Source: Escherichia coli
GTDB lineage: Bacteria > Pseudomonadota > Gammaproteobacteria > Enterobacterales > Enterobacteriaceae
DNA length: 64,000 nucleotides
Direction: 5' to 3' (one strand)
Assembly (NCBI RefSeq): GCF_003991155.1
Contig: NZ_CP031297.1
Part shown: positions 15,001-36,000 of the stretch, piece after piece
Layout: every line of letters begins with the position of its first letter
Numbering within the stretch: the first letter of the stretch is position 1
Program-made: the position numbers

Positions 15001-18000
15001 ACGGTCGAGGAGCGGATTGGCTTTGAGTACCAGGTGTTCATGATCCAGCCTGTGAACGAAGATGAGGCCAACGCCAAACGCCTTAACCGCAAGGTTGAGC
15101 GCCTGGGTGACGATCTCATCTCCGAAGTGGTTCAGGAAGCGAATAAGTTCTATATGGAACGTTTGGCCGGTCGAGACCAATGTGCGGTCACTACTCGGCA
15201 GACACTCCGTAACATCCGCGACAAGGTGGATGGGCTTAGCTTCCTGAACAGCGCTTTTAACCCTCTGGTCAAGCTGCTCGACCAAACCCTCCGGGGATAC
15301 GAGCAACATGCCGATGGCCGAAACATCGTTGCGCCTTTCTTTTATCAGGTCGTGGCCGCAGTGCTGATCATGAGCGAGAGGGACCGCATCGAGCAGTATG
15401 CCAATGGCTCGATTACTGTAGAGGGCATGGCTAATGACATTGGCGGTTCGGGAGCCCAGATGGGGGACCGTTCTAAAGATGAAAAGGCCGAACAGAAAAG
15501 CGATAAAGCCGGTGAGCTTATCCCTGCAACAGAGGGTGGCGAAACCAAGCAGCAACAGGTAGGTGGTACTGAATCTGTTCAATCAGAACAGACTAACAGC
15601 GGTGGTAACTCTGTTGACCTGGATGAAGACATCGACAACTTCTTCAAGAGTTTTGCAGAACGAGGCGAGGGTGAATCGGAAGATGAATCCAATGCCGGTG
15701 ATGTGGTTCGAGAAGAGCGTGTTGATGTTGAGGATGAGCTGGTTTTGCCTGAGGAAACTCCGGTAGAGCAAGAGCCTGTCCAAGAGGAGACGACAGAGGA
15801 GCCTCTCAACCAGGAGCTGCCTAAAACTGACGACGATGGCGACTATTTCTTCTAATAGTCACTTCAACTAAACCGACCCGGAGGGGATAGCCATTCCCTC
15901 CAGGGGTGGACTATCTCCTTCCCTACCAGGAGAAAAGATATGTCCAAAAAACGCACCATTTACAGCGCTCTACCAATCGTGGCCGCAGCCTATGGTGAAA
16001 AACTCGGTGTCAAAGTCGCCATCGGTAACGATGACGCATACACCGATGGTAAGACCATCGTGGTTCCGAATATCCCCGACGACTATCCTCACATGGATGC
16101 TGTCTGGGGGTATTTGGCCCATGAAGCAGCCCATGTCCGGTTTACGGACTTTGGTGTTGAGCGCCGCAGAGGTCTTCATGCTGAGTTGTCCAACGTTTTG
16201 GAGGACTGCCGCATAGAACGGGCCATGATGGAACTCTTCCCCGGTACGTCGCAGACCCTGAATGAGGTTGCTCGCTATATGGCTCAAGCTGGTCATTACG
16301 AGCACGTCACAGACAAAGAGGCCCCTGCCTCCATTCTGACAGGGTTTTGTTTGTACTGGTTGCAAACCAAGGCTGTAGGGCAATCCGTCCTTCAACCCTA
16401 TCTCGATTCGGCTACCCCCGTATTCGAGCGCGTGTTCCCTCAGGGTGTTGTTGTTCGGCTGAACGCTTTACTGCGTAAGGCTGTGAACACTAAGTCAACC
16501 GCAGAGGTGACATCCTTGGCCGACCAAATCATCAAGATGATCGAGGAGGAAAAGGAGAAAGAAGAGCAAAAGCCCCAGAATGGTCAGGATGGTAACAACC
16601 AGCAGAATGCTGGTGGCAACCAACCTCAGAACAGTCAGGGCGGAAGTGGTAACGATCAAAACCAAGGGCCTGATGCCAATGGTGGTGATCAGCAAGGTAA
16701 AGACCAGAAGCAAGACGATGCTAACGGGAAATCTGATCCGAAAGGACAGGGCGACCAAGGCAAGTCGGATACTGATGGTGGCAGCAAGGCAGGACAAAGC
16801 CAGGCTGGTGGCAATTCTGACGCGGCGAAACAAGACGCGGCCAAAATGCTCCAGCAGGTTCTGAATGCCGGTGCCGGTGATTTGCGTGGTGACGCGCATG
16901 ATGCACTTAAAGCCGAGCTCAACCGGGTGGCTCAAGATAAGGGGGACAGTAGCTATATGACTGTTCGCTCTGCTGTGAACACCCAGGACAACCCTGCTGT
17001 TGGCAAAAGCCTGGTAGGGGATGTGAAGAGCACCACTTCAAAGATAAGAACGCAGCTCTACGGATTGGTCCAGGCCAGCCAGCGAGTTGCTCACCGTAAC
17101 CAACGATCAGGGAAGCGTGTGGATGCTCGGAAACTACATCGTGTAGTGACGGGTGATACCCGCGTATTCCTCAAGCCAGAAGCCAAGAAACGCCCTAATA
17201 CGGCGGTTCACATCCTGGTTGATATGAGCTCCTCGATGGCCTACAAGGCCGCCAATGGAAAGGAGCGTCAAGACATTGCGCGGGAAGCGTCCTTGGCTAT
17301 TTCGATGGCTCTGGAAGCAATACCCGGCGTAAACCCGGCAGTCACCTTTTTTGGTGGCAACCGGAACCAGCCAGTGTTCAGTGTCGTGAAGCATGGAGAT
17401 ACGGTTCAGAATCGGGCCGGTCGGTTTGGGTTCAAAGCAACTGGCGGTACGCCTATGGCGGAAGCTATGTGGTATGCAGCTTTTGAACTCACCAAGACCC
17501 GTGAAGAGCGAAAAATGTTGATCGTAGTGACTGACGGGCAGCCTCAAAGAGCCCCGGCATGTCGCTCAGTGATTGACCTCTGTGAACGAAGCGATGTTGA
17601 GGTGATCGGCATAGGGGTAGAGACTACCGCAGTGTCAGGACTGTTCCAAAAGAACATTGTCATTGATGATGCGGCAGCTCTGCAACGCACACTGTTTAAG
17701 TTGATGGAGCGGTCATTGACTGCTTTTGCAGCTTAACAGGAAGTGAAACGACAAACGGCTATCCCTTCGGGGGTGGCCGTTTTTATTTGGAGAGTCTATG
17801 AACCAATTCCATTCATCTTTGGATTTGTATCATCGGAACAAAGGTAGAAGGGCTACAGTGCCGGAGACGCCTTTTTTACTGCTTGCTAAGCGCATTCCTC
17901 CGATGTACTGGAGACTGTTCCAGGGTGTTACTTTGGATAGTCGTATGGGATACACAGGCAGGCGGCAGTTCCACCGTCTTGGGCAAGCAATCGACTGGGC

Positions 18001-33000: not shown

Positions 33001-36000
33001 GTAAAACTCGGAACCTTAAAGCTCGGCTTTGGCCGTGACCTTTCAATAACCCATGCGGGTACACTTCCCCGCACGGGGTAGGTGTACCCATTAACTTTGG
33101 AGTACACCTTATGAACCAAGTAGCTAAATTGGACCTCGCCCAAATCCGTCAACAAGCCATCAATGATGGTCTGCTGGTGGACCAATCTTCCATCGGTAAA
33201 CAAGCTGGTTTCCTGACCAATGTGGCAGTGACCCCGGCAATTGTCGATGGAGTATTTGGTGCAGATGGTAAGCACTCGGTAGAAGACTTCCTTTTCATGT
33301 TTTTGCAGCTTTGTGTTGCTCAAACAAAGGTCGCTTTTACCGACAACAAGAATTGGGGAAAGATTCGTCTTTATTACCCCATGCCCACTGTAGATGGCTT
33401 TTTCAAACCCACTGAGGTTGTGATTAAGTCAGATCCTGTAACCGCAGATGTCACAATCATGATGGCCTCGGAAGAGGGCGCTCATTTGTGCTTGTGATAT
33501 TCACAAAATTCGCCTCCGTTTCGGGGGCGACCTTTTTAAACCCCTCGCCGGGGAGAACTCCCCGGCTGGGGAGCCTCCTTGGCACATTCTCCCGGTGTCG
33601 GGGTTTCCTTAAAACCCTGGCGACGGGGGTTTAAGGAAGCCTCGATGCTGGGGTTCACGCTAAGGAGAAAACCTATGTCTTACTACAAAGCTGACACCGT
33701 TCGTGAAGCTGCAAACGGAAACTGGCTATTCATCCTGGCGGCCCTAGCGCCCCATCTTGAACCAGCTCTCCGTAAACCTGGTCGTCATGTTTCTTGTCCT
33801 ATCCACGGCGGGAAAGATGGCTTCCGACTGTTCAAGGATGCCCACCTGACTGGTGGCGGCGTATGCAATACATGCGGTGCCAATCATGATGGTTTTGAGC
33901 TGCTGATGTGGCTCAATAACTGGGACTTTAAACAGTGCCTGAGCGAGGTTGGTGATTATCTGGGCGTTGAGAAAGAGCAACCCCAGTATCAACAAGCCGC
34001 TGCACCGACACGAGCTCCTGTCCAGGCCAAAGCGCCTGTTCAGCAAGAGCCTATGAAGGTGAATAACAAGGTTCTCGATTCCAAGAATCGTAAAAAATCC
34101 ATTGCCGGTACTCTGATTGCCCACGGTAAAGCTCCTTATGAGCATAACGAAGACAACGAGCTCAGCTACTTTGCCTTCATCCGTGACAAGAGCGGTTTGG
34201 AACGCACCATCTGGGGCGTGGATCTTGAAAGAGCCATTGGTGAAAGTGAAGCCAAGTATGGGGATGAGATCGTCATGACAAACCTCGGGCGCGAGCCTGT
34301 AACTGTCGTCGTTGAAGTTAAGGACGAGCAGGGGAATGTTGTGAGAGAACAACCTATGCAAACGCATCGCAACACCTGGCTGGTGGAACGTCGCGGCGCT
34401 ACGGTAACGCAGTTCCGCGCTCGCTCGAACGGTGGTGTTGAGCCGGTGAGTCACCATGTTGAGTCGGCCCCTGTGGTCAACCGCAAGGTAGAAACTCCGG
34501 CACCGCAAGTACAACCTGCGGCCACACAACCGGAAGAGCAAAGCAGCGAAAATAAGCCGAAAGTTGTTCCGATGTTTCGTGAACAACCTAAGCCTTGGTT
34601 GCTTGAGCTCCAAGAAGAAATGGAGAAGAGAATGGAGCGCGAACGCGCTTACAGTGCTCGTCTCCGTGAGAAAATCGAGAAGGTATGGAACGAGTGTTTG
34701 CCGTTCTCCAGTCATGTGACTGAGCCAATGCGTCTGTACTTCAAAAACCGCGAGCTGCTGTTCAAAGTTGATGAAGTAGAAAAAACAGACTGTCTGCGGT
34801 TCAATCCGGCTATGGCCTACTACGACGAAGATGGCAATGAAGTTGGGAAATTCCCGGCTATCGTCTGCGCTATCCGAGATGTGGAAGGCAACCTGGTAAC
34901 GCTCCACCGCACCTATCTCACCCAAAACGGTAAAAAAGCCAAGGTCGGCAACGCCAAAAAGATGATGCCCATTCCTGACGGTTTGGATGTCAATGGCGCG
35001 GCCATCCGCCTCGGTGAACCGACTGAGGGTATCCTGGGTGTTGCAGAAGGGCTGGAAACAGCTCTGTCAGCTTATCGAGTCACTCAAATCCCGGTTTGGT
35101 CAACGGTCAATGCCACCCTAATGGAGTCCTTCGAGGTTCCAGAAGGTGTTCACACCGTACTGATCTGGGCTGACAAAGATAAGTCTGTGACTGGGGAGAA
35201 GTCAGCGAACGTGCTGAAAGCCAAGCTGGAGAAGCGCGGCATTCGTGTGTACGTCCTGCTGCCTAAGCTCCCGATCCCGCCCAGAGCGAAAGGGATTGAC
35301 TGGAACGATGTCCTGATGAGTCAGGGAAGCCTCGGTTTCCCGAATGCTCGCTACCTGCGCGATTTCATTGCGAGAAGGAGAGCTGAGTATGGCCGTCATT
35401 GATGTCTCGAAGGTTGATACAACGCCTGGTAACGACGCGGTGTGCCCCTTCTCTCCCCCTGAGGGGTGGGAGGGGGACTCTGCGGCCTACGTTGAGCTTA
35501 TGCGGTCTCGGTATCGTCATCTGATGCACGGCCAGAGAATGATGGTGACAGCCTCCTTCGCAAGAAGGGAGCCTATCCAAGTTACTGGCCCGTTTGCTGA
35601 TGAAGCGACGAAGATCATTAACTCAATGAAGATGAACAAGGCGAAGCCAACAGCTTTGTCTGCCTAAAACTTTAACCCTGAGGGGGTGTTCATGCCCTCT
35701 CAGGCATGATTCGCCTCCTCTTCAACTATGGAGGTAATCATGAAAAAGTTTTTGCGTATTAAGACGTGGTTTGTGCGTCTTTTCTCTCCTGACAAGAAGA
35801 CTCTGGGAGCTATCGGTGAAGACCTGCGTAAGGTCGCCGTAACAGCCATCGGTGTCGGTATTGTAGGGGTCGTCTCAGAAAACGGAATCTATGGTCACTC
35901 CCGTTTTTGCAACACCGATTTTGACGACAAGTTGGCTTGCTTGAATCTATCCGGCGTCTGAATGGGATTTTATTCCCGCGCCTCGATGAGTTCCGCGCCT

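Follow-up and report, generated by a model that had tools for sequence, protein, structure and literature searches.

An AcaCD-activated array of small genes in the IncC plasmid backbone as a candidate establishment and anti-defence island

The window analysed here is a 64,000-nucleotide stretch of Escherichia coli DNA (assembly GCF_003991155.1, contig NZ_CP031297.1), in which positions 17798-35667 hold a block of co-oriented, mostly short open reading frames (ORFs). This DNA is backbone of an IncC (IncA/C2) conjugative plasmid, 100% identical over its full length. An accessory regulon of ~27 kb in the IncA/IncC backbone, coupled to conjugation and known as vcrx087-vcrx125 in the reference plasmid pVCR94, has the block as its distal two-thirds. 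The DNA and its regulation are already known, and its function is partly known. We consider it slightly better than an even bet that the array, taken as a whole, serves establishment and anti-defence, raising the odds that the plasmid survives its entry into a new cell. What stands of the first-pass annotation, which had proposed such an island, is a co-regulated set with DNA-modification and establishment members that continues the hde operon, while the small ORFs match no known anti-defence family. For these small ORFs, an anti-defence or establishment role is plausible, and the literature search returned no publication of this hypothesis for them. IncC plasmids count among the chief vehicles by which carbapenemase and cephalosporinase genes reach a broad range of hosts, and the block, with its genes of no known function, makes up about one-fifth of the conserved IncC backbone. 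If the block does widen the host range, through neutralised recipient defences or faster establishment, it would help to explain how easily IncC plasmids cross between genera, and it would supply ~20 new candidate anti-defence proteins.

The block is a member of the AcaCD regulon, as seen from the boxes present in the window and from the published expression data on pVCR94. The AcaCD box of the vcrx098 promoter lies at 18146-18178 (+ strand; Table S3 coordinates of Carraro 2014 mapped to the window) and that of the vcrx114 promoter at 29547-29579 (+; mapped from the motif found by chromatin immunoprecipitation with exonuclease treatment, ChIP-exo), with the published transcription start site (TSS) of the latter falling at ~29610-29612. 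Together with the vcrx087 box they form one repeat family, and AcaCD-dependent promoters are found at ~8.5, ~18.15 and ~29.55 kb of the window. In pVCR94, AcaCD ChIP-exo peaks and motifs were identified upstream of vcrx098 and vcrx114, and RNA sequencing (RNA-seq) gave 0-50 units for each gene from vcrx098 to vcrx125 in an acaCD deletion, versus ~400-10,000 with AcaCD; essentially all of vcrx087-vcrx125 is silent without acaCD and strongly expressed with AcaCD (Carraro et al. 2014, PMC4207636). A strong terminator-like hairpin followed by a T-run, recognised from sequence and fold and with a weak ctRNA-type Rfam match, is located 3' of vcrx113 (29521-29551, +). Matches to sigma-70-like promoters number 2 between 17000 and 36200, versus 13.1 +/- 3.4 in shuffles, a depletion that would fit selection for silence without AcaCD. 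The block is silent until AcaCD is made and is then read as long same-strand transcripts from three promoters, each array gene being preceded by a stereotyped structured leader. Given that a repressor controls AcaCD once the plasmid is established in a cell, the block would fire alongside the transfer functions in donors and again in fresh transconjugants before repression.

The hde operon (vcrx089-093: the AAA-CbbQ gene vcrx089, vcrx090, ssb, bet and exo) lies directly upstream, and its role in host-defence evasion is proven by experiment (PMC7498323, PMC11602122). In the former (Roy et al. 2020), vcrx089-090 counter type I restriction, the ssb-bet-exo genes expressed in the recipient repair CRISPR-Cas breaks, and the hde transcript reads on into vcrx094. 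Operon and block share the plasmid, the strand, AcaCD control, the leader motif described below and the leader architecture. They differ in that the hde phenotypes are demonstrated, whereas the block genes, dcm apart, have no signal in transposon insertion sequencing (TnSeq) and no shown phenotype. For the methylase genes of the block, anti-restriction effects are reported in PMC6555945 and PMC11602122: deletion of the three plasmid dcm genes, two of which are in the block, led to loss of transferability (Wang et al. 2019), and knocking out dcm in pKAZ3 raised restriction by EcoRII ~2700-fold (Dimitriu et al. 2024). The latter study also considers that further anti-restriction functions are probably still to be found on such plasmids.

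These data suggest how the parts may act together. The methylases alter methylation and pre-protect or re-protect plasmid DNA against some restriction systems, and the hde genes counteract type I restriction as well as mending double-strand breaks, activities that were shown by others. The primase may aid complementary-strand synthesis, the DndC-like vcrx113 may add a further DNA modification, and the YfaE-like and YfbR-like proteins may adjust the supply of deoxynucleoside triphosphates. The ~20 orphan small proteins, among them vcrx102, vcrx103, vcrx117 and vcrx119, would inhibit host factors or defences with narrow, recipient-specific effects; they are most likely inhibitors of this kind, and they are not homologues of ArdA or Ocr.

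Several points weigh against the establishment and anti-defence reading. When pVCR94 was transferred into V. cholerae O395, which carries type I restriction-modification and CRISPR-Cas, TnSeq showed depletion in vcrx089-093 only (PMC7498323). The passages on the EcoRII result do not specify which of the three dcm genes of pKAZ3 was deleted. The ~20 small proteins have no match to known anti-defence families in Pfam, PHROGs or NCBIfam, the searches covering all 27 proteins with Pfam-A (E<=0.01), the 20 unassigned ones with PHROGs and 8 of the 27 with NCBIfam. The block is extremely conserved within IncC, as opposed to the rapid turnover typical of anti-defence islands, and it is not adjacent to the origin of transfer (oriT), which is tens of kb away.

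The latter point concerns the leading region of plasmids, with which the first-pass annotation had associated the block. That placement is not established, because oriT is elsewhere and neither the nic site nor the direction of transfer is mapped: oriT adjoins mobI/repA beyond the window, directly preceding mobI where the R55 record begins, and has an unmapped nic site (Hegyi et al. 2017, PMC5587640), and neither nic site nor transfer direction was found in a 2026 paper on the IncC relaxosome. The leading-region islands known from F-, I- and N-type plasmids (ardA-psiB-ssb-orphan methyltransferase; Samuel & Burstein 2024, PMC11541004) do adjoin oriT, on its leading side. They resemble the block in their long co-oriented runs of small, mostly uncharacterised genes mixed with SSB, orphan methyltransferase and toxin-antitoxin genes, and in their variable content on a conserved scaffold; here, the co-oriented array holds two orphan methyltransferases, with ssb and the hde genes directly upstream. 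Leading-region islands often carry Frpo-type single-strand promoters (PMC11541004), whereas the block is expressed from AcaCD-activated double-strand promoters and has no ardA, psiB or klcA. The Rfam scan returned nothing relevant to Frpo, although a search aimed at Frpo-like hairpins was not made.

The claim that the block encodes proteins of no recognisable family holds for 20 of its 27 products, PADLOC having been used in addition to the searches given above, while the other seven can be assigned: vcrx100/dcm3, vcrx101, vcrx109/dcm1, vcrx113, vcrx115, vcrx122 and the N-terminal domain of vcrx119. All are encoded on the + strand. The product of vcrx100/dcm3 (19602-20486) is an orphan DNA methyltransferase with a C-terminal DpnI_C-like helix-turn-helix (Pfam N6_N4_Mtase 6.5e-8 and DpnI_C; PADLOC MTase_II 4.5e-13; also described in PMC7498323), and that of vcrx109/dcm1 (23614-25239) is an orphan C-5 cytosine methyltransferase of 541 amino acids (PF00145, 9e-29; PMC6555945). 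Both are termed orphan because no nuclease, restriction or effector family was found by Pfam, PHROGs or PADLOC in the neighbouring ORFs, which bears out the expectation of orphan methyltransferases, without cognate endonuclease, inside the array. vcrx101 (20552-20776) is a 74-residue YfaE-like 2Fe-2S ferredoxin (Pfam Fer2, 1.7e-10; RefSeq annotation), vcrx115 (29996-30601) a YfbR-like HD-domain 5'-deoxynucleotidase (PF12917, 8e-38), and vcrx122 (33675-35402) a plasmid primase with Zn-ribbon, DUF7146 and Toprim_3 domains (Pfam).

The largest product, the DndC-like PP-loop protein vcrx113 (27066-29519, 817 amino acids), was recognised by NCBIfam, PADLOC and PHROG, and it is the sole NCBIfam match among the eight block proteins scanned. 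Its first ~400 residues form a DndC-like/PRK06850 PP-loop domain of the PAPS-reductase type, followed by a C-terminal half without match. The scores are 5.8e-41 and 1.3e-34 in NCBIfam, both below the cut-off (119.9 bits for the DndC equivalog, against 290.4 required), 1.4e-41 for PADLOC DndC and 2.7e-11 in PHROG. A Dnd/Ssp phosphorothioation system would require the full set of DndA/IscS, B, D and E (or SspA-D), and the likeness here is confined to this DndC-type protein: no DndA/B/D/E or DndFGH partner was found among the block ORFs with Pfam, NCBIfam or PADLOC. This also bears on the proposal that the block is an island protecting the host from phages, with the methylases and the DndC-like protein as a modification system. 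The PADLOC matches to methyltransferases and DndC speak for it, but the missing restriction, nuclease, effector and Dnd partners and an expression coupled to transfer instead of constitutive make it extremely unlikely.

The same assignments lend themselves to another explanation, in which the block is a phage-like module for replication, recombination and nucleotide metabolism that serves plasmid maintenance and the processing of conjugative DNA at large. Its small ORFs would supply accessory subunits or regulators for these enzymes, with no dedicated anti-defence role. Indeed, all assignable proteins are DNA or nucleotide enzymes (SSB, Bet, Exo, primase, methyltransferases and the DndC-like, YfbR-like and YfaE-like proteins), the scaffold is the same across distant relatives, purifying selection is strong, and the homologues of vcrx090, Bet, Exo and DUF3150 have a conserved C-terminal aromatic dipeptide, which suggests a common docking hub. 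However, transfer does not need the block in TnSeq, the block is lost in natural variants, the upstream "recombination" genes proved to act in defence evasion, and the methylases protect against restriction. We regard this explanation as unlikely, while giving it real weight.

Comparison with relatives separates a stable scaffold from changing small genes. IncA plasmids have the same gene order but are devoid of ssb, vcrx117, vcrx118 and vcrx120, with a diverged vcrx098 and an extra DUF3085 gene. A compact metagenomic relative encodes, in order, AAA-CbbQ, a vcrx090-like protein, RecT, YqaJ, DUF3150, CobT-VWA, a vcrx102-like protein, dcm, BrnT/A, a vcrx119-like protein and the primase; the two acidic proteins that had been singled out beforehand, vcrx102 and vcrx119, are the ones it retains. 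Two further relatives display the same scaffold with other sets of small ORFs, one including RadC, and the primase is conserved beside vcrx119-like or vcrx102-like genes across relatives. In a Mannheimia haemolytica integrative and conjugative element, a vcrx119 homologue belongs to an array of small genes, and an ArdC-type protein is encoded two genes downstream of it. Losses of 18-78% of the block occur in natural IncC plasmids, some keeping for example only the vcrx115-primase end. These plasmids are still typed conjugative, which fits an accessory role of the host-range type; such variants are ready-made deletion mutants for host-range work. Conserved scaffold, turnover of the small genes, dispensability for transfer and anti-restriction neighbours elsewhere together fit, by guilt by association, an accessory role in establishment and anti-defence.

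The first-pass annotation had likened the small acidic proteins encoded beside the orphan methylases to DNA mimics of the ArdA/Ocr type. The acidity that it reported is real: the composition quoted for vcrx102 (20838-21227, +) is exact, with 26 D/E and 6 K/R in 129 residues, an isoelectric point (pI) of 4.06 and a net charge of -20; vcrx119, also named "NgrC" (31801-32652, +, 283 residues), has 55 D/E against 29 K/R, pI 4.56 and net -26; and the product starting at 14578, upstream, does have an acidic tail. Three further products are strongly acidic, those of 30877-31095 (pI 4.25), 22007-22198 (pI 4.57) and 21193-21669 (pI 4.64). "Several" acidic products is therefore correct, with 5 of 27 in this class, but "often" was generous, as most others fall in the mildly acidic range of pI 5-6 that is usual among bacterial proteins, with a few basic ones besides. 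The 129-residue vcrx102 is predicted to be all-helical and constitutes an orphan family: a search through 5.8 billion proteins gave only 21 homologue clusters, of which most share >=60% identity with it and one is a truncated match at 46%. The 158-residue vcrx103 (21193-21669, +; net charge -15) overlaps it by 35 nt.

ArdA- or Ocr-type mimicry, by which these proteins would block type I restriction enzymes, was assessed by net charge alone as regards the charge expected of a mimic, and here the values are strongly negative (vcrx102, -20/129 residues; vcrx117, -11/72; vcrx119, -26/283; vcrx103, -15/158). The small size and the Asp/Glu excess of vcrx102, vcrx117 and vcrx119 recall ArdA and Ocr, and the acidic genes adjoin orphan methylases. 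Conversely, none of the 27 proteins in Pfam, the 20 in PHROG or the 8 in NCBIfam matched ArdA, ArdB/KlcA, ArdC, Ocr or PsiB, and the AlphaFold models of vcrx102 and vcrx119, the two acidic proteins on which the fold check was run, match none of these folds either; their membership in the ArdA/Ocr families is therefore not supported. The vcrx119 model is a confident two-domain alpha/beta structure without match to a known fold, unlike the elongated DNA-like helix bundle or the ArdA-type array, and searches of PDB sequences with vcrx102, vcrx119 and vcrx113 retrieved nothing meaningful. DNA mimics have no common fold, and absent fold matches leave room for a convergent mimic, but genetic work placed the activity of IncC plasmids against type I restriction in vcrx089-090, outside the block. 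As the mechanism of the acidic proteins, DNA mimicry of the ArdA/Ocr type appears improbable.

The N-terminal domain of vcrx119 is shared with phages. It matches PHROG 5162 (function unknown) and occurs as a stand-alone gene, at 28-32% identity, within small co-oriented gene arrays of Herelleviridae Bacillus phages. In phage Hobo/BM15 and relatives this gene is located <=4 kb from the end of the genome record. By analogy with SPO1, this terminal region is presumably the early host-takeover module. The likeness to these terminal arrays resides in the vcrx119 N-domain lying among co-oriented small ORFs, and just one domain is common to both.

The genes could also act in competition between mobile elements, through exclusion, fertility inhibition or SGI1-type interplay, and not against host immunity. 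In a screen for loss of exclusion by transposon-directed insertion-site sequencing (TraDIS), insertions in vcrx107, vcrx108 and vcrx111 were enriched ~6-fold (Rivard et al. 2024, PMC11493245), a 33-ORF deletion between traN and traF lowered exclusion (PMC11493245), and vcrx119 and vcrx120 were the most reduced plasmid genes upon overexpression of SGI1 SgaCD. The deletions of vcrx107-108 and vcrx111 nevertheless failed validation, and sfx and eexC explain all exclusion (PMC11493245), which leaves this alternative very unlikely.

The most novel thing in the region is a leader motif that accompanies the array. Two kinds of element occur in the intergenic gaps. The first, AACC[CG], is present in 22 of the 29 gaps between 8714 and 35961, with 15 of the 22 sitting 58-69 nt before the next start codon, and its density is 10.6 per kb in gaps versus 2.2 per kb in coding sequence. 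It is followed by a G+C-rich hairpin, then by a second hairpin, in which minimum-energy folds show the Shine-Dalgarno sequence paired. Over the ensemble, the median unpaired probability of the Shine-Dalgarno is 0.25 for the block versus 0.36 for other genes of the window (p=0.08, 10 controls). The "leader switches" reported earlier are therefore real as regularities, but as a switch the occlusion is suggestive only.

The second element is a structured leader motif of ~60-70 nt, held by the longer gaps and lying on the + strand in every copy. It comprises a hairpin A of variable sequence, a 4-bp stem with an invariant TAGCTGG loop (hairpin B), and then the CCAAAAACAAACAGCA CA-rich tail. Copies with this layout are found upstream of the block (8551-8620, 9592-9664 and 14427-14499) and within it at 18259-18331, 22673-22745, 26458-26527 (stem GCGG/CTGC, with a G.U pair) and 32712-32784; a degenerate copy at 29612-29662 starts 5-7 nt past the vcrx114 TSS. 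As mapped, the motif begins 3-7 nt past the published TSS at the vcrx087 and vcrx114 promoters and so constitutes the 5' end of these AcaCD-dependent mRNAs. Rfam at E<=1 over 9000-36200 gave three sub-threshold, chance-level matches only, including the terminator (29518-29552), and no family for the motif; full-text searches with the motif strings retrieved unrelated eukaryotic papers only.

Scanning one genome per species with the query TAGCTGG-N7-AAACAAACAG revealed at least 120 loci. Among the matches listed, a perfect 4-bp stem encloses the loop in 108 of 145, for a chance expectation of ~2%; the 96 distinct copies display 21 stem variants, the second pair being C-G in 45, A-U in 34 and U-A in 15; and the 36 nt upstream of the loop element fold to -10.2 kcal/mol versus -5.9 when shuffled. 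A covariation score of 0.825 versus 0.226 for shuffled sequences was obtained for the stem from 60 sequences; their 100% pairing is by construction because the set was pre-selected for full pairing, and the unselected 108/145 is the fair statistic. The listed matches lie in mobile elements of many Gamma- and Betaproteobacteria, the hosts including Shewanella, Vibrio, Photorhabdus, Edwardsiella, Marinobacterium and Pseudoalteromonas and, among the Betaproteobacteria, Sulfuritalea, Gallionella and Comamonas; 74 of 90 copies among these matches precede a same-strand ORF with its own Shine-Dalgarno, at a median of 73.5 nt. The downstream genes encode PD-(D/E)XK exonucleases, SSB, DUF3150, AAA-CbbQ, DndC-like enzymes and small unknowns. 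Homologues of vcrx106 occur at 11 motif-bearing loci, Betaproteobacteria among them.

Covariation in the stem favours a folded RNA or a single strand as the functional form over a bubble-sized DNA element such as ops. In its short invariant-loop hairpin and conserved single-stranded tract within the 5' leaders of long operons, the motif is reminiscent of lambda nut (boxA/boxB) and of the ops element of RfaH. Some copies even read GCGGTAGC, eight consecutive bases of ops GGCGGTAGCGTG; this match holds in copies with a GCGG stem, whereas AAGG, GTGG and GAGG stems break it. The loop and tail sequences are otherwise unlike nut and ops, and no N-, Q- or RfaH-like factor was identified here. The layout, in which an unstructured CA-rich tract comes after a hairpin and ~70 nt before a structured start site, also resembles the ribosome standby site of tisB. 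The motif may act at the RNA level, in antitermination, ribosome standby or stabilisation, or else as a priming or loading site on the single strand that is transferred; either mode fits the strand bias. Two other readings were rejected: a sigma-70 promoter, in view of the zero transcription without AcaCD and of a hairpin A that covaries in sequence, and a Chi site, the constant part being GCTGG only.

Put together, these features may indicate a widespread, undescribed cis-acting leader system that runs the array, a proposal that we hold tentatively, at somewhat less than even confidence. The motif would stand at each operon start, with ~60-nt modules of AACCC-hairpin and Shine-Dalgarno-hairpin before nearly every following gene, and would mark establishment genes in neighbourhoods of exonuclease, RecT, SSB, DUF3150, AAA-CbbQ, DndC-like and primase genes across Gamma- and Betaproteobacteria. 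The ~20 orphans would then be a reservoir of anti-defence and host-takeover functions, and the aromatic C-terminal tips a docking hub. The conserved motif itself allows comparable establishment arrays to be sought by sequence in unrelated mobile elements, and is possibly a point of attack on their expression.

The array is widely distributed and made of genuine genes. Of 949 plasmid records matching the block, 843 do so at >=99% identity, and identical plasmids are hosted by Salmonella, Klebsiella, Enterobacter, Aeromonas, Proteus and others. pVCR94 is 98% identical; gene lengths and order identify the block as its vcrx098-vcrx123, located at 75-93 kb of 120.6 kb. The ~25 small, tightly packed, co-oriented ORFs first noted amount to 27, all on the + strand and preceded by a Shine-Dalgarno, with gaps of -35 to 264 nt. 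As anticipated, most (21 of 27) encode 48-185 amino acids; the other six span 201-817 (YfbR-like, 201; vcrx119, 283; dcm3, 294; dcm1, 541; primase, 575; DndC-like, 817). Every ORF aligning to the ~93%-identical IncA plasmid NZ_OQ282881 has a dN/dS of 0.03-0.43, purifying selection that identifies the ORFs as genuine genes and rules out a non-coding reading. The same comparison settles an annotation conflict at 21650-21949, where a + strand ORF of 99 residues ending in ...LEDFYF is open in IncA and shows 15 synonymous and 9 non-synonymous codon changes without any stop. RefSeq instead annotates 21747-21989 on the - strand (vcrx104), with 6 synonymous and 18 non-synonymous changes and a stop codon in IncA; vcrx104 has no expression in the published RNA-seq. 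The opposite-strand call is spurious and the + strand ORF is a real gene.

The remaining members of the block, all on the + strand, are small. A basic protein of 111 residues without family (pI 10.5; dN/dS 0.16 versus IncA) is encoded at 17798-18133, followed by vcrx098 (18398-18937, 179 residues, no family, diverged in IncA), whose homologues lie downstream of the leader motif in other elements, and by vcrx099 (19028-19528, 166 residues, no family). Further on are the acidic vcrx105 (22007-22198, 63 residues), vcrx106 (22243-22620, 117-125 residues), vcrx107 and vcrx108 (22812-23536, 114 and 100 residues), vcrx110, basic with a hydrophobic C-terminus, and vcrx111 (25255-26359; the latter 184 residues, no family for either), and vcrx112 (26592-26978, 128 residues, no family). 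The distal part holds vcrx114 (29721-29924, 67 residues), vcrx116, vcrx117 and vcrx118 (30594-31726; 89, 72 and 185 residues, the second with a net charge of -11), vcrx120, of 48 residues and basic, with vcrx121, of 128 residues (32858-33497), and vcrx123 (35389-35667, 92 residues), which overlaps the primase stop. To note, public records of vcrx106 carry the name "topoisomerase II" (one fragment, "cytochrome P450") although a supporting domain is absent, and a homologue search retrieved close relatives only, under the same unfounded name.

According to annotated records, the block is preceded by traU, traN, sfx, acaB, vcrx087-088, the AAA ATPase gene, vcrx090, ssb, bet, exo and the DUF3150 and VWA genes; in the window, this upstream continuation from the Pvcrx087 AcaCD promoter through the hde operon and DUF3150 to the CobT-like VWA gene covers 8551-17736 (+). 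At window 17737-18397, pVCR94 and IncA (8447-9333) hold ~0.6 kb of extra DNA including the DUF3085 gene vcrx096, presumably one of the backbone differences between type 1 and type 2 IncC. Downstream lies an IS4321/Tn21-type resistance island, with the start of an IS4321-type transposase gene at 36143. The vcrx124-like ORF before it (35740-35961, 73 residues) aligns to IncA over its first 128 nt only and measures 222 nt versus 240 in pVCR94; its 3' end appears to have been replaced at the junction with the island.

A C-terminal aromatic dipeptide, usually after acidic residues, is carried by five proteins: vcrx090 (...HFF, 10722-11630), Bet (...SYY, 12316-13305), Exo (...FYW, 13368-14378), DUF3150 (...YFF, 14578-15855) and the 99-residue ORF (...FYF, 21650-21949). 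The tip is kept in a distant marine relative (vcrx090 ...AFF, Exo ...AYF, DUF3150 ...AYF), and by analogy with the tails of SSB or T7 gp2.5 it suggests a common docking motif. In the plasmid SSB itself (11691-12221), the canonical DDDIPF interaction tip is internal and not terminal, because the nine residues MRLHHLAGG extend beyond it.

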